This document shows positions 18,443-63,521 of a stretch of DNA of 64,000 nt, one piece after another; the first letter of the stretch is position 1; each line of letters opens with the position of its first letter. The DNA comes from Candidatus Latescibacterota bacterium. GTDB lineage: Bacteria > Latescibacterota > UBA2968 > GCA-2709665. A program made the translations under genes and the position numbers. The notes under the pieces are model-generated. The model was not told where the DNA came from and made no database searches. It was given only the letters and a program-made list of their open reading frames with translations. The stretch is from the NCBI GenBank assembly GCA_965237675.1, contig OZ250150.1, positions 640,001 through 704,000 on the forward strand, given 5' to 3'.

Positions 18443-18630
18443 CCCGTTTGCCTTTGCTTCCGAAAGGAATGAAGCGGAAATCGGCGGCGGCGTTCCCTCG
18501 TCTCAAGGTCCAGCCGCGCGGCACCGGTCTGCGACTTGCCGTACGCATTGAATATACCCAATGCCCGGGCGGAATCAACCCCGCGAAAACGCAGCTTGAC
18601 AACGCGGGTTCCGGCGATGTAACATAGGTC

Positions 18631-18720
18631 CAGACGGGATGAACCCGCGCCTGCCTGTGCGTGCAGCCTCTCGCACGCAGACAGGGAAAAATGGTGACAT
18701 ATTTCCGGGACAGGACGCTA
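18631..18720. mobile_element. MITE-like element, copy C (one end, inverted relative to A)
   Basis: Reverse complement matches 13429-13515, including the TIR and the CCTGTCTGCGTGCG...CGCACAGGCAGG palindrome. Confidence 0.65.
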
Positions 18721-18764
18721 ATTTCCCTTTCTTTGCACGGAAGGGTTGATGGGGGGTTGAAAAT

Positions 18765-19496
18765 ATGTCCAGGCTTGAAGGTAAAGTCGCGTTGGTAACC
18801 GGCGGAAATCAGGGTATCGGGAAGGGAATCGCGCGGGCACTGGCCAAAGAGGGCGCGAACCTGGTGTTGACGGCCCGAACGGTGGAGACACTGGAATCGG
18901 CGGCGAAAGAGATCCGTGCGGAAGGCGTGGAGGCGCTGGTGGCGCCCGCGGACGTCACCGACGAAACGCAGGTGGAGGCCGTGTTCGCGCAAACGATGCA
19001 ACGGTTCGGAAGGGTGGATATACTTGTGAATAACGCGGCGGCGTTCGACGGGGGACCCATCGACAAGCTTTCCGCATCCGCCTGGGATTGGGCAATGGCG
19101 GTGAATCTGCGCGGACCCTTTCTGTGTACGCGGGCGGCGTTTCGCATCATGAAAGAACAGGGCGGCGGCCGGATAATAAATATAGGCAGCATTTCCGCGC
19201 AGCGGGTCCGTCCGAATTCCGCACCCTACAGCACGAGCAAATTCGGCATCACGGGCCTGACGCACGCCACGGCGCTGGACGGCCGGGACTACGGTATCGT
19301 TTGCTCATGCCTGCACCCCGGCAATACGCTGGTGGAACGTCGCCAGGTATCCGACGCGCCCACGGACGAGGAACCGATGATGACGGTGGATGAATTGGCG
19401 CAGGCCGCGGTCACCATGGCCACACTGCCGCTCCACGTCAACATGCTGGAGGCAATCGTGCTGCCCGTGGGGCAGCTATACGTTGGAAGAGGATGA
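18765..19496 (+). CDS. Short-chain dehydrogenase/reductase
   Basis: TGGNQGIG, VNNAA, YSTSK (YxxxK). Confidence 0.93.
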   Translation: MSRLEGKVALVTGGNQGIGKGIARALAKEGANLVLTARTVETLESAAKEIRAEGVEALVAPADVTDETQVEAVFAQTMQRFGRVDILVNNAAAFDGGPIDKLSASAWDWAMAVNLRGPFLCTRAAFRIMKEQGGGRIINIGSISAQRVRPNSAPYSTSKFGITGLTHATALDGRDYGIVCSCLHPGNTLVERRQVSDAPTDEEPMMTVDELAQAAVTMATLPLHVNMLEAIVLPVGQLYVGRG

Positions 19497-19660
19497 AGGG
19501 TTACCGGCAATGTTCGAGGCCTATATGGTTCCGATTTCCAGGTGCAGGCGACAGGCGATCGTCGGAATGGGAAACGGCTTAACGGAGAACTGAATGCGCG
19601 TGAATTAAGGCCAGGTTCAAGGATCGGCGCGGCCAGTTTTTTTTGGATCGAGAAATTTTC

Positions 19661-19689
19661 TTGACACTCGGTATATGATTGTTTAATGT
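19661..19689 (+). promoter_or_regulatory. sigma70-like promoter of the leader/trp-aro cluster
   Basis: TTGACA (19661-19666), 17 nt, TAATGT (19684-19689). Confidence 0.65.
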
Positions 19690-19774
19690 TACACCGTTCC
19701 TGTCGTAGCGGCTTTTCGCCGGAACCTGGCACCGGTACGAGGCGAACAGATGCCTTGATCAAAGGGGATCGAAC

Positions 19775-19879
19775 GTGACGGAACATGGTCGGAACGGGTT
19801 TTCCTGGCGTGGATATTTTTATCGCTCCTACCGGTGGTATTACCGGAAGGTCGCAGAAGGTGATGTCTGCCCACGCTAG
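19775..19879 (+). CDS. Attenuator leader peptide, 34 aa, Phe/Trp/Tyr-rich
   Basis: SD AAAGGGG 7 nt before GTG; MTEHGRNGFSWRGYFYRSYRWYYRKVAEGDVCPR*; 9 aromatic codons among residues 9-23. Confidence 0.88.
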   Translation: MTEHGRNGFSWRGYFYRSYRWYYRKVAEGDVCPR

Positions 19880-19906
19880 TAAACCGTTGACAGAGCCGGA
19901 AACTGA

Positions 19907-19934
19907 GCCGTGGGCATCTGCTCACGGTTTTTTT
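19907..19934 (+). terminator. Attenuator intrinsic terminator
   Basis: GCCGTGGGC-ATCT-GCTCACGGT plus a T7 run; the 5' arm is also complementary to TGCCCACG (19868-19875) in the leader. Confidence 0.88.
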
Positions 19935-20093
19935 GTGACCCGGTCGAAACAGAACATCAGCGAGACGCTAATGCGGCAATCTTGCCGGACGGCTGCCTGT
20001 GGGTCGTTGCCGGAAAATCGATTGACCCTCATAACGGGACGCGGATGTTTGGATCGCACTTTGTAATGTATGTGTTGAAGTCATGAACACCTG

Positions 20094-21584
20094 GTGAATC
20101 TCTTGAGTACACCCGATTTGGAAACGTTAAAGACGCTGGCTGAAGGCCGTGGATTGGTTCCGATTTCCAGGGAAATCCTCGGGGATACGGAAACACCGGT
20201 GTCCGCCTATCTTAAGTTGCGGTCCAGGAGTCCCTACAGCTTTCTTTTCGAGAGCGTGGAAGGTGGAGAAAAGATCGGGCGGTATTCTTTCCTGGGGGTC
20301 GAACCGTTTCTGGCTTTTCGGTCGTGGAAATCCCGTATAGAGTTGGAAGATTTAAAGCGGGGTGACGTTCGGGTTTATGAGGGATCGCCCGTTGCCGAAC
20401 TCAGGCGGCTGCTGAAAAAATACTGCTCAGCCCAGTTGAAGGGACTGCCCAGGTTTACCGGCGGGGCTGTGGGCTACGTGGGCTACGACGCAATCCGGTT
20501 GGTTGAAAATATCCCTGACCGCACGCGCGACGATCACGGTTTGCCGGACATCGTGTTGCTTTTCTACGATACGCTTCTTGGTTTCGACAACGTGCGGCAG
20601 AGGATCCATCTGATTTCCAACGTACATACGTCCGGGGATATTGAAGACAATCACCGGGAGGCGGAGGCGCGGATCGATGCGCTTGATAGGGCCTTGCGCG
20701 GGCCAATTCCCACGAACTGCGTTCCGGAAAGAGCGCCCCGACGCGGAGCGCTCAAGATCCGATCGAACACGGAGCGGTCTGTCTATTTGGACAAGGTACG
20801 GCGCTGCAAGGAGTATATCGCGGCAGGCGACATTTTTCAGGTCGTCATTTCACAGCGCTTTGAGACCGAGATAACCGTCGGATCGCTGGACATTTACCGT
20901 GCACTCCGCACGGTGAATCCGTCTCCTTATATGTTCCATCTGGATCTGAAGGAGGTACAGCTTGTCGGCGCGTCACCGGAGCTGCTGGTTCGGGTCGAGA
21001 ACGGCGTCGTGCAGGTGCGGCCAATTGCGGGCACCCGCTGGAGGGGGGCTACGGAAGAGGAGGATTCCGCCCTGGAGGCGGATTTGCTGAAAGACGAAAA
21101 GGAACGTGCGGAGCACATTATGCTGCTGGACCTGGGCCGGAACGACGTGGGGCGGGTATCCCGTTACGATACGGTACGGGTAACGGAACAGATGGCAATT
21201 GAACGATATTCTCATGTGATGCATATTGTGTCGAATGTTCAAGGGGTTCTCAACGATGGCGTCGATGCCCTGGATGCGCTTTATGCCTGTTATCCGGCAG
21301 GCACGGTCTCGGGCGCGCCCAAGATCCGTGCCATGGAAATTATCGACGAACTGGAAACGACCCGCCGAGGACCGTATTCGGGGGCGGTGGGTTATATCGA
21401 CTTTTCGGGCAATATGGATACCTGCATAGCCATTCGTACGATGGTGTTACAGGGCAAGAGAGCATACGTCCAGGCCGGTGGGGGAATTGTGTTCGATTCC
21501 GTACCGGAGGACGAGCACCAGGAGACGGTGAACAAGGCGAAGGCGTTGTTCAAAGCAGTGGAATTGGCGGAGGGTGCGGTTTAG
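20094..21584 (+). CDS. trpE: Anthranilate synthase component I
   Basis: TETPVSAY, LFESVEGG, GDIFQVVISQR, NPSPYMF, PAGTVSGAPKIRAM. Confidence 0.96.
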   Translation: MNLLSTPDLETLKTLAEGRGLVPISREILGDTETPVSAYLKLRSRSPYSFLFESVEGGEKIGRYSFLGVEPFLAFRSWKSRIELEDLKRGDVRVYEGSPVAELRRLLKKYCSAQLKGLPRFTGGAVGYVGYDAIRLVENIPDRTRDDHGLPDIVLLFYDTLLGFDNVRQRIHLISNVHTSGDIEDNHREAEARIDALDRALRGPIPTNCVPERAPRRGALKIRSNTERSVYLDKVRRCKEYIAAGDIFQVVISQRFETEITVGSLDIYRALRTVNPSPYMFHLDLKEVQLVGASPELLVRVENGVVQVRPIAGTRWRGATEEEDSALEADLLKDEKERAEHIMLLDLGRNDVGRVSRYDTVRVTEQMAIERYSHVMHIVSNVQGVLNDGVDALDALYACYPAGTVSGAPKIRAMEIIDELETTRRGPYSGAVGYIDFSGNMDTCIAIRTMVLQGKRAYVQAGGGIVFDSVPEDEHQETVNKAKALFKAVELAEGAV

Positions 21585-21633
21585 CATAAAGAATGCATGC
21601 TGCCATCCTTCAACGATCACGGATCATTGACTT

Positions 21634-22197
21634 ATGATTCTGGTAATCGACAATTACGATTCGTTCACCTACAACCTGGTTCAGTATCTGGGTGAGTTGG
21701 GCGCGCGGATGGAGGTATTCCGGAACGATCGGATCGGACTGGACGAGATCGGCGCATCCCGACCGGACAAGGTAGTGATTTCACCCGGTCCGTGTACGCC
21801 GAACGAGGCGGGAATCTCTGTGGATTTGATCCGGCGGTATACGGGGCGGATTCCGATGCTGGGCGTCTGTCTGGGGCATCAATGCATCGGACAGGCGTTT
21901 GGCGGCACGGTCGTGAGGGCTCCGGCGATTCTCCACGGTAAAGTATCGGAGATACACCACGACGGACGTTCGATTTTCAGGGATATGTCAAATCCGTTCA
22001 TTGCCACCCGATACCATTCCCTGATTGTGGAACGCGAGAGCCTGCCGGACTGCCTGGAGGTCTCCGCGCAGACGCATGACGGGATTATCATGGGATTGCG
22101 GCACCGGGAGTATCCGGTCGAGGGCGTGCAGTTTCATCCGGAGTCCATCTTGACGTCCGAGGGCAAAGTGTTGTTGCGGAATTTTCTGGATGGCTGA
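21634..22197 (+). CDS. trpG: Anthranilate synthase component II (glutamine amidotransferase)
   Basis: [24 protein letters not shown]. Confidence 0.96.
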
Positions 22198-22252
22198 ATT
22201 CGGGGATCTGTAAATGGGTCCGGTTCTCTGTCTGCAAGTCAGGGAGATGGCT

Positions 22253-23269
22253 ATGTCGATACAGGATTCGATTGCAAGGCTGATTGAGGAACAGAATCTG
22301 ACACGGGACCAAATGGTCGGGACGATGAACCAGATTATGTCGGGCGGAGCGACGGACGCACAGATCGGTGGGTTTCTGGTCGCGTTGCGCCTCAAGGGGG
22401 AGACAGCGGAGGAGATCGCGGGCGCCGCGGAGGTGATGAGGGAAAAGGCGACCCGGATCGTGACGAGACATGCGACGGTGGTCGATACATGCGGCACCGG
22501 AGGTGATGGGTCGGGCACTTTCAATATATCGACGGCCGCAGCGTTTGTGGTTGCGGGCGCTGGCCTTTGCGTGGCCAAACATGGGAATCGCGCGGCAACC
22601 AGCTTGTGTGGCAGCGCGGATGTCTTAAAGGAACTGGGGGTGAATATCGAGGCGGCGCCGGAGACGGTGGTACGGTGTCTGGATGAGGTAGGCATCGGGT
22701 TCCTGTTTGCTCCGGCTTTGCACGGTGCAATGAAATATGCGATCGTACCCAGACGCGAACTCGGCGTGCGCACGGTTTTCAACGCTCTGGGGCCACTCAC
22801 CAATCCTGCGGGGGCAACCCGGCACCTGATCGGAGTATATAGTCGATCGCTGACCGGCAGGCTGGCGGAGGTGTTGCGAACATTGAATTCGGAACGTGCG
22901 TTTGTAGTTCACGGCCTGGACGGACTGGATGAGATCACCACGACCGGACCGACGCAGGTGAGCGAGTTGAAGAACGGAACGGTATCCACGTATGAGATCA
23001 GACCGGAGGATCTGGGCATCGCCAGGGCGACGACAGGTGATCTGGCAGGGGGCAACGCCGAGACCAATGCGGCGATTCTGCGCAGGGTGCTGAATGGTGA
23101 GCCTGGTGGGCGGCTGGATGTTGTCTTGCTGAATGCGGCAGCCGCCATCGTAGCCGGTGGCGCCGCGGATGATCTGCCGGCAGGGATAGCCCTGGCCAGG
23201 GAGGCCGTGGATTCGGGGCGGGCAATGGAAAAACTGGAAGAACTGAAACTGGTCTCGGACGGAGGGTAG
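22253..23269 (+). CDS. trpD: Anthranilate phosphoribosyltransferase
   Basis: DTCGTGGDG, FNIST, KHGNR, GLDEI. Confidence 0.96.
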   Translation: MSIQDSIARLIEEQNLTRDQMVGTMNQIMSGGATDAQIGGFLVALRLKGETAEEIAGAAEVMREKATRIVTRHATVVDTCGTGGDGSGTFNISTAAAFVVAGAGLCVAKHGNRAATSLCGSADVLKELGVNIEAAPETVVRCLDEVGIGFLFAPALHGAMKYAIVPRRELGVRTVFNALGPLTNPAGATRHLIGVYSRSLTGRLAEVLRTLNSERAFVVHGLDGLDEITTTGPTQVSELKNGTVSTYEIRPEDLGIARATTGDLAGGNAETNAAILRRVLNGEPGGRLDVVLLNAAAAIVAGGAADDLPAGIALAREAVDSGRAMEKLEELKLVSDGG

Positions 23270-23360
23270 TTGACGTTGAGCGATTTCGTCACCCGCCCCC
23301 GAACATACGCCTTCAACGCGATCAATAAGGGTCGCCCGGCGGAAACGAAGATGGTTCAGT

Positions 23361-24152
23361 ATGGCTACAATCCTGGATGAGATCATCGCTTATAAGCGTC
23401 GCGTTGTGGCTGAGGCAAAACAACGGATTTCCCATGGGGAGTTGCAGAAGCAGTGGGATCTGGTCCGTGAGCCGGTCTCGTTGATTGAAAACCTGACTGC
23501 CGGGGAGGATATCGCGTTGATTGCGGAGATAAAGAAGGCATCTCCGTCGAAAGGAGTGATTCGCGAAGATTTCGATCCGGTGGAAATCGGCCGGGTTTAC
23601 GAAAAAAACGGCGCGGCGGCAATTTCCGTGCTGACGGATGTGAAGTATTTTCAGGGCTCCGACGACAGTCTGAAGGCCGTAAGCGAAGCCGTGGAACTGC
23701 CGGTGCTCCGGAAGGATTTCGTGGTTGATCCTTATCAGATCCATGAAGCCAGAACAATCGGGGCGTCTGCGGTTTTGCTTATTGTTTCAGCGCTCTCGCA
23801 ACGTGACCTGGCAGGGATGCTCGCTGTCTGCAGGGAGTCGAAATTAGGCGCGCTGGTGGAAGTGCACACCAGAGAGGAAGCGAGGATGGCGCTGGACGCG
23901 GGAGCAGAACTCTTGGGGGTGAATAACCGCGACCTGAAGACATTTAAAACAGACTTGCGAACCACATTCGACCTCATGGAACATCTGCCAGACGAACTTG
24001 TGACGGTCAGTGAAAGCGGTATCGAGACCAGGGACCAGGTGGTTCGATTACGGGAAGCCGGCGTGGATGCGGTGCTGGTCGGGGAGCATCTGATGCGCCA
24101 CCCTGATGTCGGTCGGAAGCTTCGAGCGCTGTTGGGCAAGGAAGGCGGCTGA
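23361..24152 (+). CDS. trpC: Indole-3-glycerol phosphate synthase
   Basis: IAEIKKASPSKG, LRKDF, GVNNRDL, SESGI. Confidence 0.96.
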   Translation: MATILDEIIAYKRRVVAEAKQRISHGELQKQWDLVREPVSLIENLTAGEDIALIAEIKKASPSKGVIREDFDPVEIGRVYEKNGAAAISVLTDVKYFQGSDDSLKAVSEAVELPVLRKDFVVDPYQIHEARTIGASAVLLIVSALSQRDLAGMLAVCRESKLGALVEVHTREEARMALDAGAELLGVNNRDLKTFKTDLRTTFDLMEHLPDELVTVSESGIETRDQVVRLREAGVDAVLVGEHLMRHPDVGRKLRALLGKEGG

Positions 24153-24160
24153 TTCAAACC

Positions 24161-24781
24161 ATGGTTCGGGTGAAGATTTGCGGCATCACGAATCCGGAGG
24201 ATGCGCTCTTTGCGGTTGCACAGGGCGTTGACGCCCTGGGGTTCATCTTTTATGAGCCCAGCCCGCGTTACGTGCATCCTGACCGCGTGAGCGAGATCGT
24301 GTCGGAGTTGCCGCCGTTTGTCACGCCAGTTGGCGTTTTCGTGAACAAGGTCAGGGAGGATATCCTGGCAATTGTGCGGTCGACGCGGCTTCGGGCGGTC
24401 CAATTGCACGGCGACGAGACGCCGGCTGATTGCCAGGGGTACCCTTTTCCGGTCATCCGTGCATTGCGGGTCGGCGAGGGATTCAACCCTGCGTCGCTGA
24501 GCGTTTATCCCGTAAACACGTTTCTGCTGGATACGGCAAAAAAAGGATGGTACGGCGGTACGGGAGAGACCTTTGACTGGCGGGTTGCAAGGGCAGCTGC
24601 GGCACACGGTCGGATCATCCTGTCGGGGGGGATCGATCCGCAAAACGTGGCGGAAGCGGTCCGAATGGTGAATCCGTATGCCGTGGACTGCGGCAGCGGC
24701 GTTGAGGCCGCGCCAGGCAGGAAGGACCACTGCAGGATCGCAGAGTTTTTCGAGGCGCTTCGCTCTGTAAACGGGAACTAG
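24161..24781 (+). CDS. trpF: Phosphoribosylanthranilate isomerase
   Basis: VKICGIT, QLHGDE, GGTGETFDW, SGVE..PGRKD. Confidence 0.96.
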   Translation: MVRVKICGITNPEDALFAVAQGVDALGFIFYEPSPRYVHPDRVSEIVSELPPFVTPVGVFVNKVREDILAIVRSTRLRAVQLHGDETPADCQGYPFPVIRALRVGEGFNPASLSVYPVNTFLLDTAKKGWYGGTGETFDWRVARAAAAHGRIILSGGIDPQNVAEAVRMVNPYAVDCGSGVEAAPGRKDHCRIAEFFEALRSVNGN

Positions 24782-24931
24782 ATTGCCGAAATTCGGCCGA
24801 CCAGAAGCAGCAAGAACAGCTATCTGCTCTCAGCCGTCAGCTTGAATCAAAAACCCAATCAGTTGACGTCAGCGCCGTGAAAAGCCAGCACCCAGAACGG
24901 GCGCAATGAGGGCACTTCTACAGGCTCAGTG
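24779..24931. mobile_element. Decayed MITE-like element, copy D
   Basis: Reverse complement of 24779-24799 matches 13560-13580 at 19/21; 24908-24931 matches the CTGAGCTTGTCGAAGTGCCCTC segment of copy A. Confidence 0.5.
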
Positions 24932-25083
24932 TCCACATTTCCACAAACTTGCTTCGGCAAGCCGTTTCGACAGGCTCGACGTAGAAAACGCACCCGGCGA
25001 ACGCAAAGCGGATGGATTGCCGAAATCTGCGACAATCAGCGTAATTTTGCTTCATCAACCGAATCGATCTGGAGCGAGACATT

Positions 25084-26349
25084 GTGGACATCTTGAAAGA
25101 TCTGGAGTTCCGGGGGTATGTTTTTCAGGTAACGGACGCCAGCGGACTCAAGGCGCGGCTCGCCCGGGGGCCGATTACGCTCTATTCGGGGTTCGATCCC
25201 ACGGCAGACAGCATGCACCACGGTAACCTGATACCCATTCTGGGACTGCGCCGTTTCCAGTTGGCCGGGCACCATGCAATTGGCCTTATCGGGGGAGGCA
25301 CCGGTTTGATTGGCGATCCGAGCGGCAGCAAGGAAGAACGCCGGTTGAACCCGCCCGAGGTGATCGAGGCATATACCGGGAAGCTGACAGAGCAATTGGC
25401 TAAATTTCTGGATTTCGAGACACGGACAAATCCGGCGCAGGTGGTCAGTAATTCGGGCTGGCTTTCCGAACTCAGGGCAATTGACTTCCTGAGGGACACC
25501 GGCAAGCATTTTTCCATGGGTTATATGCTGGCGAAAGAGTCTGTGGCCTCCAGGCTGGAGTCGGGAATATCGTTCACTGAATTCAGCTATATGGTCATAC
25601 AGGCACATGACTTTATGGAGCTGTTTCGGACGCACGGATGCGAGTTGCAGATTGGTGGGAGCGATCAATGGGGCAATATTACCGCAGGAATAGAGTTGAT
25701 CCGTCGTCGGCTGCGCGGGCAGGCCCACGGGCTGACGTTTCCGCTGCTGGAGAAAGCCGACGGGTCCAAGTTCGGCAAGACGGCATCCGGTACCGTCTGG
25801 CTGGATGCTGCGAAGACATCGCCCTATCAGTTCTACCAGCACTGGATCAATACGGATGACCGGGATGTGGTGAGTTTCCTGAAGCTGTTTACCTTTCTCC
25901 CAAAGGATGAGATCCGAAATCTTGAATTGGAAGTGGCACAACGCCCCGAGAAGCGGCAGGCTCAGCGGGTGCTGGCCCACGAGGTGACCACGTTCGTACA
26001 CGACAGGGCCGCCACGGAGCGGGCGGAGCGGATATCCGAGGCGTTGTTTTATGGGGATCTGCGAAATTTGAGTGCTCAAGAGATAAAGGAAGCGTTCAGC
26101 GACGTGCCATCTCATGCGCTCAATGGCGTTTCTGAAGTGGGTCTGGTCAGTCTGCTGGTCGATGTCCGGATTTCATCATCCATGCGCCAGGCACGCGAAG
26201 ACATCAAGTCCGGTTCGATACAAATCAATGGCCGGCGGTGCACCGATTTAGGCCGGATCCTTGAGCCTTCCGACAGACTCGCGGGAAAATACCTGGTGGT
26301 GCGCCGGGGCAAACGCCGCTACTTTCTGGTGCGCTGGAATAATTGGTAG
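25084..26349 (+). CDS. tyrS: Tyrosine--tRNA ligase
   Basis: YSGFDPTADSMHHGN, QIGGSDQWGNI, KFGKT, C-terminal S4-like RRGKRRY. Confidence 0.96.
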   Translation: MDILKDLEFRGYVFQVTDASGLKARLARGPITLYSGFDPTADSMHHGNLIPILGLRRFQLAGHHAIGLIGGGTGLIGDPSGSKEERRLNPPEVIEAYTGKLTEQLAKFLDFETRTNPAQVVSNSGWLSELRAIDFLRDTGKHFSMGYMLAKESVASRLESGISFTEFSYMVIQAHDFMELFRTHGCELQIGGSDQWGNITAGIELIRRRLRGQAHGLTFPLLEKADGSKFGKTASGTVWLDAAKTSPYQFYQHWINTDDRDVVSFLKLFTFLPKDEIRNLELEVAQRPEKRQAQRVLAHEVTTFVHDRAATERAERISEALFYGDLRNLSAQEIKEAFSDVPSHALNGVSEVGLVSLLVDVRISSSMRQAREDIKSGSIQINGRRCTDLGRILEPSDRLAGKYLVVRRGKRRYFLVRWNNW

Positions 26350-26442: not shown

Positions 26443-27420
26443 ATGAAAGCACCCTGGATTACCTATCGGCCGGAACTCAAAGTACTTGATTGTACGATTC
26501 GAGACGGCGGATTGATGAATGACCATCATTTTACAGATGATTTCGTGAAGGCAGTTTATGAAACGTGCGTTGACGCGGGCGTCGACTATATGGAAATCGG
26601 GTACCGAAATTCCAAGGAGATGTTCCCAAAAGGACAATTCGGACCCTTCCGACACAGCGACGAAGAAGATATCCGGAAGGTTACGGGTGATCACGACCCG
26701 GTGGCGACCGGCCTGAAGCTCGCCATTATGGCCGATGCGGGCAAGAGCGATTGGGCGGAAGACATCCTGCCGGCCAGCGAGAGCGTGGTCAGCATGGTAC
26801 GCGTTGCGTGCTACGTCGAACAGATCCCCGAAACCGTCGAAATGCTTTGCGACGCCCATGAGAAGGGGTATGAAACCAGCTGTAACATTATGGCCATTTC
26901 GACCGTGCAGGAGGTCGAGATTGACCAGGCGCTGGAGGTTCTCATACAAACGCCGGTTGGAACAATATGCGTTGTAGACAGTTTTGGCGCATTGTACCGC
27001 GAGCAGGTGGATATGCTCATTCGGAAGTATATGGAAGCCGTCGACGGAACAGGAAAGGAAGTAGGCATTCACGCGCACAACAATCAGCAACTGGCATTTG
27101 CCAATACCCTCGAAGCGCTGATTCTGGGCGCCAACCGGGTTGATGCCACCGTGGATGGACTTGGCCGCGGCGCGGGAAATTGCCCCCTGGAATTGCTGCT
27201 CGGATTCTTGCGGAATCCCAAGTTCAAGATTCGTCCTGTCTATAGGCTGCTGGAAGACCATTTTGTCAAATTGCGCGGTGACTTGACGTGGGGGCCCCTG
27301 ATTCCGTACAACATCACGGGTCAGCACAACCAGCATCCCCGCGCGGCGATGGCGCTTCTGGACGGGGAAGACCACAATCGGTATCTGGCATTCTACGATC
27401 AGGTGATGAGGGATATCTAG
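26443..27420 (+). CDS. DRE-TIM (HMGL-like) metallolyase, 4-hydroxy-2-oxovalerate aldolase-like
   Basis: LDCTIRDGG, YMEIG, HAHNN, GLGRGAGN. Confidence 0.85.
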   Translation: MKAPWITYRPELKVLDCTIRDGGLMNDHHFTDDFVKAVYETCVDAGVDYMEIGYRNSKEMFPKGQFGPFRHSDEEDIRKVTGDHDPVATGLKLAIMADAGKSDWAEDILPASESVVSMVRVACYVEQIPETVEMLCDAHEKGYETSCNIMAISTVQEVEIDQALEVLIQTPVGTICVVDSFGALYREQVDMLIRKYMEAVDGTGKEVGIHAHNNQQLAFANTLEALILGANRVDATVDGLGRGAGNCPLELLLGFLRNPKFKIRPVYRLLEDHFVKLRGDLTWGPLIPYNITGQHNQHPRAAMALLDGEDHNRYLAFYDQVMRDI

Positions 27421-27611: not shown

Positions 27612-28832
27612 ATGGAAACAATGGCACTTCTCAAAGCAGATGAACCAACCCGGACGTGGCCCGATTCCGGCGGACACTTCGGACCCTATGGCGGGCGCTA
27701 CGTTCCGGAAACGTTGATGCCGTTGTTGGAGGACCTGGAGGCAGCCTACCACGAGGCGAAGGGCCGTACGGATTTCAAGGAGGAATTGGACCGGTATCTC
27801 GCGGAATTCGTGGGAAGGCCGACGTCACTTTATTTTGCACAAAGGCTGACCGCCAAACTGGGTGGCGCCAGAATCTATCTGAAGCGGGAGGACCTGGCGC
27901 ACACGGGCGCGCATAAAATAAACAATACGATGGGGCAGATTCTGCTTGCCAAGCGGATGGGCAAAACGCGCATCATTGCGGAGACAGGCGCCGGTCAACA
28001 CGGAGTGGCGACAGCAACTGTGGCGGCGATGTTCGGAATGGCCTGCGAGATTTACATGGGCACCGAAGACATGGAACGGCAGGCGTTGAATGTGTTTCGG
28101 ATGCGGCTGCTTGGGGCCAGAGTGACCGGCGTGGACTCGGGCAGCAGAACACTGAAAGATGCGATCAACGAAGCCATCCGCGATTGGGTGACGAATGTGG
28201 AGGATACGTTTTATATTTTCGGATCCGTCCTGGGACCGCATCCGTATCCGATGATCGTGCGCGATTTTCAGCGGGTGATCGGGGTGGAAACGCGTCGTCA
28301 GATCCTGGAAGCGGAAGGCCGGTTGCCGGACTGTCTGATCGCGTGCGTTGGGGGCGGCAGCAATTCTATCGGGCTGTTTCATGCCTTTTTGGAGGACACG
28401 GACGTGCGGATGGTTGGTGTCGAAGCGGGAGGCCATGGGATTGCCTCCGGAGACCATGCCGCCCGATTTCAAGGTGGGGATCTGGGCGTGCTGCACGGGG
28501 CCCGGATTTACATCTTGCAGGATGAGGACGGGCAGATCGCCCTTACTCATTCGGTGTCCGCGGGTCTGGATTATTCGGGAGTAGGGCCGGAGCACTGCCA
28601 TCTGCGGGATGCAGGTCGGATCGAGTATGTGTATGCAACGGACGACGAGGCACTGAAGGCCTTTCAACTGTTGAGCCGCACCGAGGGTATAATCCCCGCG
28701 CTGGAAAGCGCGCACGCGATCGCGTACGTGTCCAAAGCGGCGCCCGAAATGGGCAAGGACGCGGTCATCGTGGCGAATCTTTCAGGCCGCGGCGATAAAG
28801 ACGTACAGCAGGCGGCGAAGTACCTGGATTAG
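27612..28832 (+). CDS. trpB: Tryptophan synthase beta chain
   Basis: [44 protein letters not shown]. Confidence 0.97.
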
Positions 28833-28885
28833 GCACCTTTCCGCCGATTGTGTTCAAGCCGGAATCGAAGAATGGGGTCGCTCGA

Positions 28886-29698
28886 ATGACAAGGATCGGG
28901 AAGCGGTTCGAAGCGTTGAAAGACGCGGGCAGGACTGGATTTGTGGCCTATATTACGGCGGGAGATCCGGATCTGGCAACCACCCGAAAACTGGTGCCGG
29001 AGTTGGAACGGCGCGGGGTGGACATTCTGGAGTTGGGCGTGCCGTTCTCCGATCCACTGGCGGATGGTCCGGAAATCCAGCAGGCATCGCAGCGGGCCCT
29101 GCGGCATCGGGTCTCAATCGGCGACGTGCTGAATCTGGTGGAGGACCTGCGGTTGGAGACGGAGATGCCGATCGTTCTGTTTACGTATTTCAATCCGATG
29201 CATCGATTTGGCCTGAAACGGCTTGTTGACCGGGCGGCGGAAGCGGGGGTCGACGGCATTCTCGCACTGGACCTCCCACCCGAGGAGGCGGCGGAGTACA
29301 AGTGTCTGATGGCGGAACAGGGATTGGACACGATTTTTTTGATTGCACCTACGAGCCGTGAGGATCGCATTCAACGGATTGCAGCTCATACCAGCGGGTT
29401 TGTGTATTACGTCTCACGCACGGGCGTAACGGGGGAACGGAACAGGCTGGAAGAGACGCTTGCCGCCAAGGTGGCGAGCATCCGACGGCATACGTCGCAA
29501 CCGATTGCGGTAGGGTTTGGAATTTCGACGCCCGAACATACCAGGGAGGTTGCAGGTTATGCGGATGCAGTCGTCGTGGGCAGCGCGATTGTTCGGCGAA
29601 TTGGGCAGCGGCAAGGCGATCCGGATCTTGTTTCACAAATTGGGACATTTGTGGAAGAGCTTGTGCAACCGTTGAAGGGAGCAGCGGATGGATCTTGA
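28886..29698 (+). CDS. trpA: Tryptophan synthase alpha chain
   Basis: LELGVPFSDPLADGP, VSRTGVTG, VGFGIS. Confidence 0.97.
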   Translation: MTRIGKRFEALKDAGRTGFVAYITAGDPDLATTRKLVPELERRGVDILELGVPFSDPLADGPEIQQASQRALRHRVSIGDVLNLVEDLRLETEMPIVLFTYFNPMHRFGLKRLVDRAAEAGVDGILALDLPPEEAAEYKCLMAEQGLDTIFLIAPTSREDRIQRIAAHTSGFVYYVSRTGVTGERNRLEETLAAKVASIRRHTSQPIAVGFGISTPEHTREVAGYADAVVVGSAIVRRIGQRQGDPDLVSQIGTFVEELVQPLKGAADGS

Positions 29699-29981
29699 AG
29701 ACTGGCGAAAGGAAATCGACGCCCTGAATCAACAACTGTTGGAGCTTCTGAATCGGCGAGCCGAATGCGCCCTTGAAATTGGCAGGATCAAACAGGCAAT
29801 CGAGCAACCCATCTATGCACCGGAACGGGAGACGTCGATCCTGAACCGAATCCGCGAACTGAACACGGGGCCGCTGGCCGATGAAGCGGTGCAACGGATT
29901 TTTAAGCAGATAATCGATGAGTCCAGGCGGTTGGAACAGGAGCATGGCGAACGGGACACGGGGGGCACGAATCCCCTCTGA
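29688..29981 (+). CDS. Chorismate mutase (AroQ type II, monofunctional)
   Basis: LEDWRKEIDALN...LLNRRA...IGRIK...PERE...ESRRLE. Confidence 0.92.
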   Translation: MDLEDWRKEIDALNQQLLELLNRRAECALEIGRIKQAIEQPIYAPERETSILNRIRELNTGPLADEAVQRIFKQIIDESRRLEQEHGERDTGGTNPL

Positions 29982-30052
29982 ATCCACCCGTGAAACCGGC
30001 CGAGACAGGACACAAGATTGACCGTCGCGATTTACCGCGGAGTTGAAAGCAT

Positions 30053-31081
30053 ATGGCCTTCAGAAAAATCCTGAAGATACCCACGCCGGAAGCCGTGCTG
30101 GAGAAAATGTCGCTTCCGAAAACGCTGAAGACGATAAAGGAGGATCGCGACACGGAAATCAGGGATATTTTCGCGCGCAAGAGCGATAAGTTTCTGCTGG
30201 TGATCGGACCCTGTTCAGCGCACAACGAAGATGCCGTATGTGAATACGTATTCAGGTTGGCGAAACTGCAGGAGGCCGTCCGGGAAAAGCTGGTTCTGGT
30301 GCCGCGCATTTATACCAACAAACCCCGCACAACCGGCGAGGGGTACAAGGGGATGGGGCATCAACCGGACCCGCGGAAGGCACCGGATATTTCTCAGGGC
30401 ATTTTTGCGGTTCGTCAGATGCACATCCGCGCGGCCCGGGAATCACACCTGACGGCGGCCGACGAAATGCTGTACCCGGGCAATCTGCCTTATGTCGAGG
30501 ATCTGCTGAGTTATATCGCTGTAGGCGCACGATCGGTGGAAAATCAGCAGCACCGATTGACCTGCAGCGGCGTTGGCGTACCCGTGGGAATGAAAAACCC
30601 GACGGGAGGAGATCTTTCGGTAATGCTGAACGCGATTCATGCCTCACAGATTCCGCACGTCTTCATCTATAACGGTTGGGAGGTGCGCACCGACGGCAAT
30701 CCCTTGACACATGCCGTGCTTCGGGGCTTCCTGGACGTGACAGGGCGTAGTATACCGAACTACCACTACGAAGACCTCATGTACGTTGCGGAACTCTATC
30801 AGCAGCGCCCACTCGCCAATGCCACAATCGTCGTGGATACGAATCACAATAACTCAGGCAAGCAGTTCCGCGAGCAACCCAGGATCGGGTTGGAGGTAAT
30901 ACGCAGCCGGCAGAGTTCGGAGTTTTTGAAGGATATGATCCGCGGGTTGATGGTGGAAAGTTATCTGGTTGAGGGCTCTCAGAATGTAAATGACGGCGTG
31001 TACGGAAAATCCATTACCGATCCGTGCCTGGGGTGGAAGGAATCCGAGGCGTTTGTAAAGGAACTGGCGGACAGGATATGA
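30053..31081 (+). CDS. aroF: DAHP synthase, class I-alpha
   Basis: IGPCSAH, KPRTTGEGYKG, GARS, GMKN, SITDPCLGW. Confidence 0.93.
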   Translation: MAFRKILKIPTPEAVLEKMSLPKTLKTIKEDRDTEIRDIFARKSDKFLLVIGPCSAHNEDAVCEYVFRLAKLQEAVREKLVLVPRIYTNKPRTTGEGYKGMGHQPDPRKAPDISQGIFAVRQMHIRAARESHLTAADEMLYPGNLPYVEDLLSYIAVGARSVENQQHRLTCSGVGVPVGMKNPTGGDLSVMLNAIHASQIPHVFIYNGWEVRTDGNPLTHAVLRGFLDVTGRSIPNYHYEDLMYVAELYQQRPLANATIVVDTNHNNSGKQFREQPRIGLEVIRSRQSSEFLKDMIRGLMVESYLVEGSQNVNDGVYGKSITDPCLGWKESEAFVKELADRI

Positions 31082-31159
31082 GAGCGGACAGGCTCAGGAC
31101 TCATCAGGAAATCGGAATTGGCTTCCGACGCTTTTGCCCGCTCTTCCGAGGATGACCGT

Positions 31160-32272
31160 ATGGAAAATGATCCTCCGTTTGCGCGTGAGACGATAGCCAT
31201 CGTCGGCGTGGGGTTGATTGGCGGCTCTCTTGGTGTGGCGCTCAAGGGTCTGGGCATCGGGCGAAGCATCGTTGGCATCAGCAGGCAGGAGACGCTGGAT
31301 GTAGCCGGCGATTTGGATGTAATCGACGCGGGCTATCGCTATGAGGAACTTGCCGCGGCGATTGCCGACGCGGCGCTGATTTTCCTGTGTACTCCCATAG
31401 TACGTATTCTGAACCTGCTGCCGCAGGTCCTGGGGGCGGCGCGGAAGGGTGCGGTCGTAACCGATGTGGGCAGCACCAAACACGCGATTGTTTCCGCGGC
31501 GATGGCTCATCGGCGGGATGGCGTGTATTTTGTGGGAGGGCACCCGATGGCGGGGTCCGAACATCGTGGGGTCAGCGCGGCGGATCCGTTCCTGTTTCAG
31601 AACGCAATATATGTGTTGACGCCGTCGCCCGATACGCCCGATATCGTGATCGACCGGCTCGCGCGCCTCGTCGGGGCGCTCGGGGCGAGACCCATGAGGA
31701 TGACTCCTCAGACACACGACAGGGCGGCGGCGGCGGTGAGTCACCTGCCGCAGATGATGGCGACAAGCCTGGTGTCCATGATAGGCCGGATGACCGAGGC
31801 CGAAGGGCTGCCGATACGGATGGCGGCAGGCGGTTTTCGGGATCTGACACGCATTGCATCCAGCCCGTATGAGATGTGGCGGGATATCTGCCATACAAAC
31901 GCGGCCCCGATCCGTGAGATGATCGATCTGTATATTGAATCGCTGGCAGCGATTCGGGGGGCAGTAGACCAGGATCGGCTGGAACGGGCATTCGTCCATG
32001 CGAATCGTGTACGTGGACAGATCCCGAAGGACTCCAAGGGGTTTTTACATCCGCTATACGAAATTCTCCTCATAGCCGAAGACAGGCCGGGCGTAATTGC
32101 CGACGTCGCTCAGACCCTGGCCCGTGAGAACATCAATATTAACGACATCGAGGTGTTGAATGTAAGGGAAGGGGAAGGGGGCACCATACGAATGGGGTTC
32201 GATTCACGTCCATGCGCGGAACAGGCCGTAGACGTGTTGGGAAGAGCGGGATACAGCGTCAGGCTGAGATAA
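31160..32272 (+). CDS. tyrA: Prephenate/arogenate dehydrogenase with C-terminal ACT domain
   Basis: GVGLIGGS, TDVGSTK, GGHPMAGSE, SHLPQ, FRDLTRIA; ACT EDRPGVIA. Confidence 0.93.
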   Translation: MENDPPFARETIAIVGVGLIGGSLGVALKGLGIGRSIVGISRQETLDVAGDLDVIDAGYRYEELAAAIADAALIFLCTPIVRILNLLPQVLGAARKGAVVTDVGSTKHAIVSAAMAHRRDGVYFVGGHPMAGSEHRGVSAADPFLFQNAIYVLTPSPDTPDIVIDRLARLVGALGARPMRMTPQTHDRAAAAVSHLPQMMATSLVSMIGRMTEAEGLPIRMAAGGFRDLTRIASSPYEMWRDICHTNAAPIREMIDLYIESLAAIRGAVDQDRLERAFVHANRVRGQIPKDSKGFLHPLYEILLIAEDRPGVIADVAQTLARENININDIEVLNVREGEGGTIRMGFDSRPCAEQAVDVLGRAGYSVRLR

Positions 32273-32378
32273 ACGCTAGGATCCGGAACGGGAAACGATT
32301 GAACGAACGAGATCGCTGTCCGTCCGTTTGTTATTCCATTCTGAAGAAAGCGTGGTTTTGGACTTCGCGGGTTCGGTA

Positions 32379-33665
32379 ATGTCCCAGGGCACGGTCAAGC
32401 CCTCGCAGGGCCTTGTGGGCGCGTGCGATCTTCCCGGCGATGCAAATATGTCGGTAATGGCCCTTGTGCTTTCGTCCTCGGCCGATGGAATCTCCCGGAT
32501 CCACAGGTGTTCGAGACGACCGGAAGTCGAGCGGACCGGGGTTCTGCTGTCGGAACTCGGGATTACCGTGGCGTGGGACGGTGAGACCGCAACGGTGACT
32601 GGCGGCGACTTATTAGAGCCGGACGCCGAGCTGCATGCGGGCGGGTCGCTGGTTCTGTTTTCCTGTCTGGCGGGATTGCTGTCGAATGCGCCTTTTGTGA
32701 CCAGGCTTTCCGGGTTTCGGGCGGATACCAACGTCGACCGGGTTTTCGAGGCGCTCCGCGCGTTGGGCGCACACCTGGACATCCGGACTGAGGACCGGAT
32801 ATCGGCAGGTGTGGGAGGGGGTAAGTTAACGCCCGGATCCTACCGTATCGGACTTCCTGATCTGGCGGTGAAGTGCGGAATGCTCATGGCCGGATTGGGT
32901 GTGGACGGAACGGTTGAACTGGTACAGGAGACAGGCGGGGATGACGATCTGGAGGTGTTGCTGCAAGCTGCGGGCTGCGGGCTGAAAAAGAGGCGGATGA
33001 AGGGCGCCGGGGGTCATCAACTGTTGTTGGACGGACCGGTATCGCTCCACGGCGTTACACATGAGTTGCCGGGTAGTTCGGACGCGGCGCTGTTTTTTGC
33101 TCTCGCTGCGGCAATGCTGAGACGGTCTGAGTTGACGGTAACCCATTTCGGAATGGATTTCAGAAGCCGCAGGATCGTGGACATATTGCGCCGAATGGAC
33201 GTTTTGATGGATATGGAGCACTGCCGGACGGATTCCGGTTTTCCCGTTCGACGCGTCCGGATAAGGGGGTCCGAATTGCGTGGCATTAAGATCTCGGGCG
33301 AAAACGCGAGACTTTTCAGGGACGTGATCCCGTTTCTGGCGGTCGCGGGCGCCGTGTCGCGGGGCGAAACCATAATACGGGATGCGCAGACGTTGCGGGA
33401 CGGTCCGGTGGACTGTATATCGGTATTGGTGGAAAACCTCAGGAAGATGCAGATTCAAGTTGGGGAGATACCGGATGGTCTGGTTGTGAAAGGCGGCCAG
33501 TTGCAGGGCGCCGAGCTCGACGCGGGCGGCGACGCGCGCGTGGCAATGGCACTCACGCTTGCTGGGATGGCGGGCGAGGGGGAAACATCGGTAATTAACC
33601 CAGGCCCCGTGGGTCAGACGTATCCGGGGGTGTTGGAAAGATTGGCTGCCGTTTTGGAGATGTAA
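32379..33665 (+). CDS. EPSP synthase (AroA)-fold protein with degenerate active site
   Basis: Full-length AroA-like pattern (LPGD..S, GETIIRDA..LR, GDARVAM, TYP) with most catalytic motifs substituted. Confidence 0.85.
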   Translation: MSQGTVKPSQGLVGACDLPGDANMSVMALVLSSSADGISRIHRCSRRPEVERTGVLLSELGITVAWDGETATVTGGDLLEPDAELHAGGSLVLFSCLAGLLSNAPFVTRLSGFRADTNVDRVFEALRALGAHLDIRTEDRISAGVGGGKLTPGSYRIGLPDLAVKCGMLMAGLGVDGTVELVQETGGDDDLEVLLQAAGCGLKKRRMKGAGGHQLLLDGPVSLHGVTHELPGSSDAALFFALAAAMLRRSELTVTHFGMDFRSRRIVDILRRMDVLMDMEHCRTDSGFPVRRVRIRGSELRGIKISGENARLFRDVIPFLAVAGAVSRGETIIRDAQTLRDGPVDCISVLVENLRKMQIQVGEIPDGLVVKGGQLQGAELDAGGDARVAMALTLAGMAGEGETSVINPGPVGQTYPGVLERLAAVLEM

Positions 33666-33755
33666 ATCGCGCTCGTAATTCGGTTGCTTTGAGCATTTGA
33701 TCCCTCCAGGGACGGTTTGAGTCCCTGGGTCAATCGTTGGTACGAGGAGAGTCAT

Positions 33756-33896
33756 ATGAGACTGGTTGTCAGGTTGTTCCTTCTGGCGTTAATGGTGTTT
33801 CTGGGAGGCGTGGTCTTCATTCGGTACACCTACAACTGTTCCTGGAAGGAGAGTTTCGCGATTGCTGACCAGTTTGTGTCGGATCTGACCCGTTGA
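33756..33896 (+). CDS. Small (46 aa) single-TM protein, not in the ORF track
   Basis: SD GAGGAG 6 nt before ATG; MRLVVRLFLLALMVFLGGVVFIRYTYNCSWKESFAIADQFVSDLTR*. Confidence 0.7.
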   Translation: MRLVVRLFLLALMVFLGGVVFIRYTYNCSWKESFAIADQFVSDLTR

Positions 33897-33979
33897 GCAA
33901 AGTGTGGCGGTGCATTGTGCGGCGGGATTTCAACCGCGCAGATGTAAATTAGCAAAACATCAGGGCGGGGGAACCTGTT

Positions 33980-34846
33980 TTGGGTATTGTTGCAACCACG
34001 CAGTTGCTGGGGGTGATCGGGGATCCGATTGCCCATTCGTTTTCGCCGGACATGCACAATGCCGCCATCCGTGTTCTCGACGTCGACTACCGTTACATGG
34101 CGTTCCACGTGCTGTCGGATGGGGTTGAGCCGGCGCTTCAGGGTATGCGCGCTCTGCAGATCCGGGGTTTGAACGTGACCCTTCCACACAAGAGTGCCGT
34201 GATGGCGTACCTGGACCGGATTTCGGAAGAAGCGCTGGCCGTGGGCGCGGTGAATACGATTGCTTTCAAGGACGGCGAACTGGTCGGGTACAATACCGAC
34301 GTGTACGGTTTGGCCACCGCACTGGATCTGACGGCGGGCCTCGCCGTGCTCCCGGAGCACTGCGTGGTTTTAGGCGCGGGCGGCGTGGCGCGGGCGACTG
34401 TTTACGCGCTGGCTACACAAAATGAGGTCCGGCGGGTGAGCATTCTCAATCGGACCGTTGCTCGTGCGGAGGCGCTTGCGCGTGATATGGAACGGATCAC
34501 AGGCAAGGCGATCGACGCGGGCAATCTGACGAAAGACACCCAGACGAGGCGGTTCGCGGATGCCGGCCTCGTCGTGAATGGAACTTCGCTGGGGATGTAT
34601 CCGAACGTGGAGCAGTCCCCTCTTGCGGATGCAGACGCGATTCACTCACAACTGGTGCTTTACGATACGGTTTTCAACCCGCTGGAAACGCGGCTGATGC
34701 GGCAGTTTCGAGCCGCGGGCGCCCCTGCCTTTGGAGGGCTGGATATGCTGGTACATCAGGGTGCGCGTTCGTTTGCCATCTGGACGGGAATCGAACCGCC
34801 CATCGACGTCATGAAACAAGCGGTAATTGGCCGTTTAGGGGCGTAG
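33980..34846 (+). CDS. aroE: Shikimate dehydrogenase
   Basis: GDPIAHSFSP, NVTLPHK, GAVNT, YNTD, GAGGVAR, MLVHQG. Confidence 0.95.
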   Translation: MGIVATTQLLGVIGDPIAHSFSPDMHNAAIRVLDVDYRYMAFHVLSDGVEPALQGMRALQIRGLNVTLPHKSAVMAYLDRISEEALAVGAVNTIAFKDGELVGYNTDVYGLATALDLTAGLAVLPEHCVVLGAGGVARATVYALATQNEVRRVSILNRTVARAEALARDMERITGKAIDAGNLTKDTQTRRFADAGLVVNGTSLGMYPNVEQSPLADADAIHSQLVLYDTVFNPLETRLMRQFRAAGAPAFGGLDMLVHQGARSFAIWTGIEPPIDVMKQAVIGRLGA

Positions 34847-35640: not shown

Positions 35641-35930
35641 TTGGCGGTTGCGGCAGCACGTGTCTGGAAACATTTGCGTGCGAATCGGCTTGATGGCTTT
35701 TACTTTCGACGGCAACAAATCATCGACGGCTTTATTGTCGATTTCTACTGTCATTCAGTCGGATTGGTAATTGAAGTCGATGGCGAGGTTCACCAGAATC
35801 AGGTTGCGTATGATGCAAAACGGGATGGCATTCTCAAAGCGCGAGGATTACAGGTTTTACGCATTTCAAATGTTGAAATTCGCACGGATTTAGATGGCGT
35901 TCTCCAATCAATCAGAGCTTATATAAAACA
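35641..35930 (+). pseudogene. N-terminally truncated DUF559 (Vsr-like endonuclease) domain, in frame with argS
   Basis: WKHLRANRLDGFYFRRQQIIDGFIVDFYC...IEVDGEVH...DAKRD...LRISN; AT-richer than its neighbours. Confidence 0.75.
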
Positions 35931-35954
35931 GTGTTTACTCAACGCTTGGTTCAA

Positions 35955-35995
35955 CTCCCCCTTTCCTCGTAGGAGAGGGAGCTGGGGGGAGAGGT
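35955..35995. repeat. REP-like imperfect palindrome following DUF559
   Basis: CTCCCCCTTTCCT-CGT-AGGAGAGGGAG followed by G-rich CTGGGGGGAGAGGT. Confidence 0.5.
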
Positions 35996-36003
35996 CCTCC
36001 TTT

Positions 36004-63445: not shown

Positions 63446-63521
63446 TGGAGCCGCCCGGGGGACTCGAACCCCCGACCTACGGATTACAAATCCGTTGCTC
63501 TACCAGCTGAGCTAGGGCGGC
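63446..63521 (-). tRNA. tRNA-Thr(TGT)
   Basis: GCCGCCCTAGCTCAGCTGGTAGAGCAACGGATTTGTAATCCGTAGGTCGGGGGTTCGAGTCCCCCGGGCGGCTCCA; 76 nt cloverleaf with encoded CCA. Confidence 0.98.

Follow-up and report, generated by a model that had tools for sequence, protein, structure and literature searches.

A putative ribosome-mediated attenuator with mixed aromatic codons upstream of a trp-aro-tyrS gene cluster in Latescibacterota

Introduction

Bacterial control of aromatic amino acid synthesis is classically split among separate devices: the trpL, pheL and pheM leaders, the TyrR and TrpR repressors, and also TRAP and T-box elements. What kind of device, then, is a short open reading frame (ORF) in which Phe, Trp and Tyr codons crowd together, placed ahead of a terminator and directly upstream of trpE? 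The question is raised by nt 19661–19934 of a 64,000-nucleotide stretch of a Latescibacterota genome (contig OZ250150.1; the whole stretch is referred to as the window). The original prediction, made from the sequence alone, had read this region as a leader-peptide attenuator of trpL/pheL architecture that responds to all three aromatic amino acids. Sequence, folding and comparisons within the phylum all bear out the architecture, and the element is, on sequence evidence, very probably a ribosome-mediated leader-peptide transcription attenuator of the trpL/pheL kind. The explanation that we favor, with moderate confidence, is that a ribosome stalling at aromatic codons works this attenuator and that it gates a trp-aro-tyrS supraoperon.

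A leader ORF rich in aromatic codons

The promoter, Shine-Dalgarno (SD) sequence, 34-codon ORF, aromatic counts, three competing pairings and U7 terminator of the original prediction are all present, and this anatomy is visible on the plus strand. The sigma-70-type promoter, read from the sequence at 19661–19689, comprises TTGACA (19661–19666), a 17-nt spacer and TAATGT (19684–19689). A consensus promoter scan did not list this TTGACA-17-TAATGT site, probably because TAATGT is a 4/6 match and because of the position 2/6 rules for TATAAT. A TTGACA -35 box and a TAAT(G/C)T-like -10 box stand at the equivalent place in relatives of both families of the window's order. Between promoter and SD, the RNAfold structure contains a genus-specific stem-loop domain of the 5′ untranslated region (UTR) at 19696–19750 (UCCUGYCGG...CCGGCAGGA). 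Its outer stem is retained in an Alifold structure of 14 genus members; family f2 has a 5′ UTR of about 35 nt without this stem.

The SD sequence AAAGGGG (19761–19767) lies 7 nt upstream of the start codon and aligns with GGAGG or AAGGA in relatives. The leader ORF (19775–19879) begins with GTG, with no earlier in-frame start, ends with TAG at 19877–19879, and encodes MTEHGRNGFSWRGYFYRSYRWYYRKVAEGDVCPR. Its regulatory block, codons 9–23 (19799–19843), holds F9, W11, Y14, F15, Y16, Y19, W21, Y22 and Y23. These two Phe, two Trp and five Tyr codons make up 9/15 of the block, versus 8.1% for the three residues together in the proteome (F 4.06%, Y 2.70%, W 1.35%).

Such a composition is rare in this genome. 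Over the whole 5.6 Mb, only three of 50,007 ORFs of 20–60 codons, the leader included, reach nine or more F/W/Y residues in a 15-residue window; of the other two, one lies inside a 397-aa ORF and one has no T-run downstream. When the threshold is lowered to eight, 13 ORFs qualify genome-wide, and a T-run follows just two of them, the leader and one inside a gene. The aromatic enrichment of the leader is beyond chance. No second aromatic leader was found among these 13 ORFs. A search for other classical leaders, with runs of His, Leu, Thr, Phe and other codons before 509 strong terminators, yielded none that was convincing, though such a screen does not show their absence.

Competing RNA segments and the proposed switch

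Four segments can be assigned to the transcript. Segment 1 (19790–19812; core CUGGCGUGG at 19804–19812) is the partner of segment 2 in the minimum-energy structure. Segment 2 (19868–19889) contains the TAG codon; its nt 19871–19889 pair with segment 1, and nt 19868–19875 (UGCCCACG) pair with segment 3. Segment 3 (19905–19916) is the 5′ arm of the terminator, and its part CGUGGGCA (19909–19916) is common to antiterminator and terminator. Segment 4, the 3′ arm GCUCACGGUUU, together with the U7 tract (19928–19934), spans 19920–19934, as found from the sequence and a terminator scan. The 1:2 pairing joins TGGCGTGG (19805–19812) to CCACGCTA (19871–19878) with one G-U pair. For the 2:3 pairing, TGCCCACG (19868–19875) is the exact complement of CGTGGGCA (19909–19916). 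The terminator stem, from 19905/7 to 19928/30, has 11 pairs, 6 of them G-C, a loop of 4 and the T7 run at 19928–19934. An additional inner hairpin at 19827–19850 was seen among the RNAfold pairs; it covers codons 18–26, with Y19, W21, Y22 and Y23. Folds of family f2 contain an analogous small hairpin across the Tyr run.

Folding of 19696–19940, which had been suggested as a check, places the 1:2 pairing and the terminator together in the minimum-energy structure at -93.7 kcal/mol (z = -2.4; equalled by 3 of 200 shuffles). The region thus combines an ORF behind an SD sequence, a cluster of end-product codons, a terminator, mutually exclusive 1:2, 2:3 and 3:4 pairings, and a stop codon within segment 2.

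From this layout we infer that transcription either terminates or reads through, and that the choice depends on translation of the leader. Transcription would start near 19696, and a ribosome would translate the 34-codon ORF while the polymerase transcribes the leader. When Phe-, Trp- and Tyr-tRNAs are charged, the ribosome would reach the TAG at 19877–19879. Since this codon sits within segment 2, a ribosome at the stop would cover that segment, or else would free it to re-pair with segment 1. Segment 3 could then pair with segment 4, and transcription would stop at the U7 tract (~19934). Alternatively, a stall at F9, W11, Y14, F15 or Y16 would place the ribosome footprint on segment 1. Segment 2, thus freed, would pair with segment 3, the terminator would be blocked, and read-through into trpE and the genes downstream would follow.

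Conservation among relatives

The leader is conserved upstream of trpE. All 41 related genomes, from two families of one order, have trpE. Of the 30 loci obtained, 29 carry a short ORF rich in aromatic codons ahead of the gene; the exception is a contig that ends ~130 nt upstream. In the same 29 loci the ORF is followed by the terminator core TGGGCA..GCTCACG and a T-run. Thirty-nine distinct leader regions, from the window's order and named Latescibacterota records, were aligned (alignment A1). Every one of these leader peptides contains all three aromatic residues (F 1–5, W 1–2, Y 2–6), and the remainder of the peptide diverges; the peptide GFSWRGYFYRSYRWYYR of the genus is replaced in other clades by SFFWRYFWYYRYYRQ, HFWYFWRRFDGRYYYYRR and LWYWRRFDGRFYYYR. 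The start codon at the aligned site is GTG, ATG or TTG in the 39 leaders, mostly behind GGAG or AAGGA. In 37 of them the stop codon lies 27–38 nt upstream of TGGGCA; in the remaining two it lies 58 nt before it, and segment 2 ends 17 nt past the stop.

The survey was extended to the phylum, where trpE was detected in 105 of 168 genomes (E up to 1e-80). The upstream 600 nt were taken for 40 further genomes, and one uniform screen was run over all 70 loci. It asked for an ORF of 10–70 codons with at least five F/W/Y per 15 residues, including one Trp, and for a hairpin of -9 kcal/mol or lower with U4 within 110 nt past the stop. The window's order (families f1 and f2) was positive at 34 of 35 loci; a look for short F/W/Y-rich ORFs upstream of trpE in relatives had been suggested with the original prediction. 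Positives were also obtained in f3 (3/3), f4 (9/12), f5 (1/2), f8 (1/1) and f14 (2/3). The loci of f13 (0/1), f9 (0/2), f10 (0/8), f12 (0/2) and f6 (0/1, a truncated contig) were negative. The leader is present in most surveyed genomes of the class's other families, and its distribution across the phylum outside the order, f3 and f4 is patchy. The three f4 misses have ORFs of the RYWWRF or RVWRFW type, and hairpins follow the ORF in both that were folded. A pattern scan of public genomes matched at least 119 stretches, at least 23 of them carrying the leader. Among the matches listed, the leader-bearing stretches are labeled Latescibacterota or Latescibacteria (19), Gemmatimonadota (3) and uncultured bacterium (1); in 13 of the at least 23, the leader region is identical to loci from the window's order. 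The other 96 stretches among the matches listed were set aside by an ORF screen as apparent chance matches.

The codon mix differs between clades. Leaders of the window's order and of f3 are rich in Tyr and Phe. Those of f4 are dominated by Trp (RRWWWRFWSY-type; W 2–4, with 3–4 in most, F 1–3, Y 1–2). Gene order was compared by tblastn of the window's proteins against 20 regions of 20 kb. In f1 and f2 the order trpEGDC(F)-tyrS-trpBA-CM-DAHPS-tyrA-aroA-aroE-ubiE-argS (CM, chorismate mutase; DAHPS, 3-deoxy-D-arabino-heptulosonate 7-phosphate (DAHP) synthase) is found in most of 8 regions; the G026 region has matches up to CM only, and G016 has no aroA match. In f3 no DAHP synthase or aroA matches were obtained, and tyrS was matched in one of two regions. 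The order in f4 is trpEGDC-CM-tyrA-aroA-aroE-argS, without tyrS, trpFBA and DAHP synthase. Operons that include tyrS and DAHP synthase thus go with Tyr-rich leaders, a correspondence drawn from no more than two or three independent contrasts.

Evidence for the pairings

The strongest comparative support is that for the terminator. Across alignment A1, 97.7% of 429 cells are paired, and compensatory change is observed: three of the 11 pairs change on both sides (for instance C-G in 24 leaders and U-A in 12). The covariation score was matched by none of 500 shuffles, and slid controls were 25–54% paired.

The antiterminator in the window's register is paired in 83.3% of 305 cells. Its five-pair core UG(C/U)CC:GGGCA forms in 36–39 of the 39 leaders and is extended differently by clade, on the 3′ side in the genus (ACG:CGU) and into the terminator loop in f2 (GUU:AAC). 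Family f4 uses different helix sequences (GAUGCGUCCAC with GCGGACGCAUC, plus GCGUCCGC) in an unchanged layout. When a 39-nt stretch around the stop codon was paired with segment 3, no more than 5 of 200 shuffles gave a better duplex in 32 of 55 leaders (median z -2.3), and in most leaders the end of this duplex and the stop codon are no more than 3 nt apart. L176, L137, L160 and L185 are among the weak cases, and one of 56 leaders has no terminator detected by the script.

The sequence and position of segment 1 vary by clade. Nevertheless, a segment early in the ORF pairs with segment 2 in all 11 folds printed (of 39).

Amino acids that may be sensed

From the codons and their position we infer to which amino acids the leader would respond. 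For the placement test, a stalled ribosome was given a footprint of -15 to +13 around the A-site codon, and segment 1 was taken from the fold before segment 3. In 28 of 39 leaders all three kinds of aromatic codon are placed such that a ribosome stalled there would cover at least 4 nt of segment 1. Seven leaders have two kinds so placed and three have none, while one leader could not be evaluated. In the window, the codons over segment 1 are F9, W11, Y14, F15 and Y16. Codon changes were counted in 12 of 13 genus sequences; the count excludes one genus leader whose start position differs, as well as the leader of the window itself, which is one codon shorter. Six Tyr/Phe columns are aromatic in all 12, and the changes are TAT/TAC or Tyr to Phe.

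Several points weigh against the attenuator reading as it stands. Segment 1 does not extend as far as Y19, W21, Y22 and Y23, which are four of the nine aromatic codons. The synonymous excess is weak, with 16 synonymous to 31 nonsynonymous changes in the leader frame versus 11:37 and 10:39 in the two alternative frames. Taken over all clades in the register of the window, segments 1 and 2 are only 61.5% paired, and support for their pairing comes from per-sequence folds (before segment 3), a procedure that always finds some structure. The covarying stems that were to be sought in relatives are there for the terminator; the antiterminator core, however, is invariant within the order and does not covary (500 of 500 shuffles match its score). 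Finally, a minimum-energy simulation with a ribosome mask on truncated transcripts did not discriminate, since segment 3 was partnered in almost every state. Because thermodynamic masking does not discriminate, the argument becomes a kinetic one, as in the textbook model.

The idea that the leader senses each of the three amino acids gains support from the presence of the three codon kinds in 39 of 39 leaders, their placement in 28 of 39, and the aromatic-to-aromatic substitutions. Against it stand four observations. Conservation in the genus is lowest at the Trp columns, where 11 of 12 sequences retain W11 and 7 of 12 retain W21, with a Tyr in one more. Family f4 has Trp-dominated leaders before a similar operon, and pheA lies outside the operon. 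Moreover, aroR of Corynebacterium glutamicum, a leader with Phe-Tyr-Phe, reportedly responds to Phe and not to Tyr (PMC11802643). Judging from these sequences, a response to at least two of the aromatic amino acids is slightly favored, while a response to all three would be somewhat less than an even bet.

Arg could be a fourth input, as 6 of the 34 leader codons encode Arg and argS lies at the end of the cluster. The proteome contains 8.7% Arg, and 3–9 Arg occur across the 39 leaders. This frequency may also reflect chance or the needs of G+C-rich pairing. We advance, as a tentative proposal only, that one leader integrates the charging of tRNA-Phe, tRNA-Trp and tRNA-Tyr for a supraoperon of ~15 genes, perhaps with Arg as a fourth, and that the codon mix is tuned to operon content throughout the phylum. 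If so, Trp codons would prevail where tyrS, DAHP synthase and trpFBA are missing from the cluster, as in f4, and the mix would be rich in Tyr and Phe where tyrS and DAHP synthase are included.

The most serious rival keeps the same attenuator and lets only a subset of the aromatic codons regulate, as in a Trp leader of the f4 kind or a Tyr/Phe leader, the rest being passengers or serving pairing. The Trp-dominated leaders of f4 before a similar operon, the position of pheA, and the reported response of aroR to Phe alone (PMC11802643) all speak for it. In addition, segment 1 includes TGG and the inner hairpin includes the Tyr run, and constraint on nucleotides could retain aromatic codons there. 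Yet the three kinds are retained in 39 of 39 leaders despite clade-specific helix sequences and are within reach of segment 1 in 28 of 39, and substitutions in the Tyr/Phe columns are synonymous or aromatic-to-aromatic. The codon mix also follows tyrS, with Y 2–6 in f1/f2, where tyrS is present, and Y 1–2 in f4, where it is not, although these are two or three independent contrasts only. We hold this rival to be rather unlikely.

It is much less probable that the ribosome plays no part and that the hairpins bind a protein, a tRNA or a ligand, in the manner of a T-box, TRAP or a riboswitch, with the ORF incidental. The invariant antiterminator core and the weak synonymous excess would suit such a switch. 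However, all 39 leaders retain an SD sequence, a start codon and an open frame despite their divergence in sequence, the position of the stop codon follows that of segment 2, and aromatic composition is conserved in the peptide and not in the nucleotides. A search by cmscan of 18500–21000 and 20 related loci, at E up to 1, returned no Rfam match, T-box RF00230, RF00513 and RF01859 included; the only Rfam match in the window is a tRNA at 63449–63521. A T-box had been suspected from CCGGUGGUAUUACCGG, a GGUGGUA-like motif whose likeness to a T-box core is superficial, and was dropped for want of an Rfam match. TRAP (TrpBP, PF02081) was not found in the genome, which is 99.93% complete, by a search whose control matched Bacillus subtilis only and which did not extend to (G/U)AG repeats.

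It is also very improbable that the ORF encodes a small peptide with a function and a terminator of its own, for example an arrest peptide of the TnaC type or a small aromatic-rich protein, unrelated to the sensing of charged tRNA. It could account for the C-terminal V-C-P motif conserved near the stop codon. This motif is, however, the translation of segment 2 (GUCUGCCCAC), and RNA pairing therefore explains its conservation. The peptide is poorly conserved outside the aromatic block, and in every case the element immediately precedes trpE. It would also make no sense for a biosynthetic operon to be induced by a free amino acid. Three further ORFs overlapping the region were rejected as genes: a +1-frame ORF (19785–20066, 93 aa) is seen only where the nucleotides are conserved and is absent in f2, and the minus-strand ORFs at 19289–19786, which has no Pfam match, and 19689–19925 are not conserved as genes.

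Comparison with known attenuators

The ribosome-mediated attenuator proposed here resembles trpL of Escherichia coli and Salmonella in having a short SD-led ORF, codons over segment 1, exclusive helices and a U-tract terminator upstream of trpE. As in the Yanofsky model, a terminating ribosome would mask segment 2. The likeness is one of logic and not of sequence, as RF00513 was not matched. The leader of the window has 34 codons with nine regulatory ones (F2 W2 Y5), where trpL has two tandem Trp codons; its stop lies inside segment 2, and segments 1 and 2 are separated by an additional inner hairpin. The operon differs too, with tyrS, chorismate mutase, DAHP synthase, tyrA, aroA and aroE added, and the host is a member of the Latescibacterota. 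With pheL-pheA and pheM-pheST of E. coli the element shares runs of aromatic codons, and pheST offers an attenuated synthetase gene comparable to tyrS in the window's operon. Those leaders are Phe-only. RF01859 was not matched here, and the pheA of this genome lies elsewhere without a leader.

Several end-product amino acids are read by one leader in the ilvGMEDA, ilvBN and thr systems of Enterobacteria, a case of multivalent attenuation. The window's leader is like them in carrying codons for several end products of a branched pathway, although theirs are branched-chain or Thr/Ile codons. In all likelihood the element is an attenuator of the classical ribosome-sensing type, unusual in its mix of aromatic codons; the mechanism itself is known, and this is a variant of it.

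The closest mixed aromatic case found in the literature is aroR of C. glutamicum, a Phe-Tyr-Phe leader upstream of aroF that acts by ribosome stalling (Neshat et al. 2014, as summarized in PMC11802643). Both place mixed aromatic codons before a gene of the shared pathway, a likeness in function only. As described there, aroR has three codons of two kinds, without Trp, and controls a DAHP synthase operon and not trp. Its reported response to Phe and not to Tyr cautions against equating the presence of a codon with sensing. The ilv and leu leaders are mentioned in PMC2659441. Our literature search returned no three-way aromatic leader and aroR as the only mixed aromatic case; an earlier report may exist elsewhere.

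Should sensing of the three amino acids hold, a single translated sensor for the three kinds of aromatic codon would solve the problem compactly and in a multivalent way, parallel to the ilv and thr leaders. The element stands before an operon that unites the shikimate trunk with tyrS and the branches to Trp and Tyr, and as a probable attenuator it extends the classical mechanism to the Latescibacterota, a phylum without cultured members. The leaders of the phylum, from Trp-dominated to Tyr/Phe-rich, form a natural series for relating the identity, number and position of codons to attenuator specificity. It may also be feasible to employ the element as a small genetic sensor of aromatic amino acid supply.

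The downstream gene cluster

The operon fits the leader that heads it, as its products serve the synthesis of Trp, Tyr and their common precursors and it includes tyrS. On the plus strand the leader is followed by trpEGDCF-tyrS-aldolase-trpB-trpA-CM-DAHP synthase-tyrA-aroA-aroE-ubiE-argS. Pfam assigns trpE, trpG, trpD, trpC and trpF (20094–24781) and tyrS (25084–26349), the tyrosine-tRNA ligase, which also matches TIGR00234 with 389 bits. Pfam and NCBIfam assign trpB and trpA (27612–29698). Next come a type II chorismate mutase (CM_2, 29688–29981), DAHP synthase, prephenate dehydrogenase with an ACT domain, 5-enolpyruvylshikimate-3-phosphate (EPSP) synthase and shikimate dehydrogenase (together 29688–34846). 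The predicted content of Trp branch, tyrS, chorismate mutase and tyrA was thus correct, and Pfam and NCBIfam confirm DAHP synthase, aroA and aroE as well. The shared shikimate trunk, also expected downstream, is represented by only three steps within the cluster. The gene pheA (G000:C1:571918–572787) is found ~88 kb away, on the upstream side of the aromatic leader, and the 128-nt gap in front of it was found to contain no leader. The leader terminator is the sole strong terminator-like site on the plus strand outside coding sequence between 19500 and 38500, and the whole cluster is probably co-transcribed.

Some lineages of the phylum differ in trpE or tyrS. No trpE was found (E up to 1e-80) in 63 of the 168 genomes, mostly in f4, where 19 of 76 genomes have a match and several without one are more than 90% complete; many lineages of the phylum may lack Trp synthesis. 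At the tyrS position, L191:5268–6491 (G015), L193 and L199 encode a tyrosyl-tRNA synthetase (TyrRS) 25–29% identical to that of the window; one divergent TyrRS was checked and passes TIGR00234 with 382 bits. Two divergent TyrRS types evidently share one operon slot.

The HMGL-like aldolase gene (26443–27420, plus strand) lies between tyrS and trpB; its best NCBIfam match, 4-hydroxy-2-oxovalerate aldolase, is well under the cut-off, and an HMGL-like aldolase gene occupies this position in 2 of 8 f1/f2 relatives surveyed. The 302-nt gap between trpF and tyrS was found to contain neither a leader nor a plus-strand terminator. A 12-nt direct repeat (GATTGCCGAAAT) at 24781–24792 and 25015–25026 flanks most of it, and the spacing of the trpF and tyrS matches in four relatives is 17–34 nt, which together suggest a small insertion in the window. 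A 46-codon hydrophobic ORF (MRLVVRLFLLALMVFLGG...) lies at 33757–33897 on the plus strand, inside the 315-nt aroA-aroE gap. Finally, the argS frame (35641–37707, plus strand) carries DUF559, a Vsr-like endonuclease domain, at residues 4–94, in frame before the ArgRS domains. In most relatives the tblastn matches to argS cover ~1.7 kb only; the N-terminal portion could accordingly be an insertion, or else a small gene in its own right.

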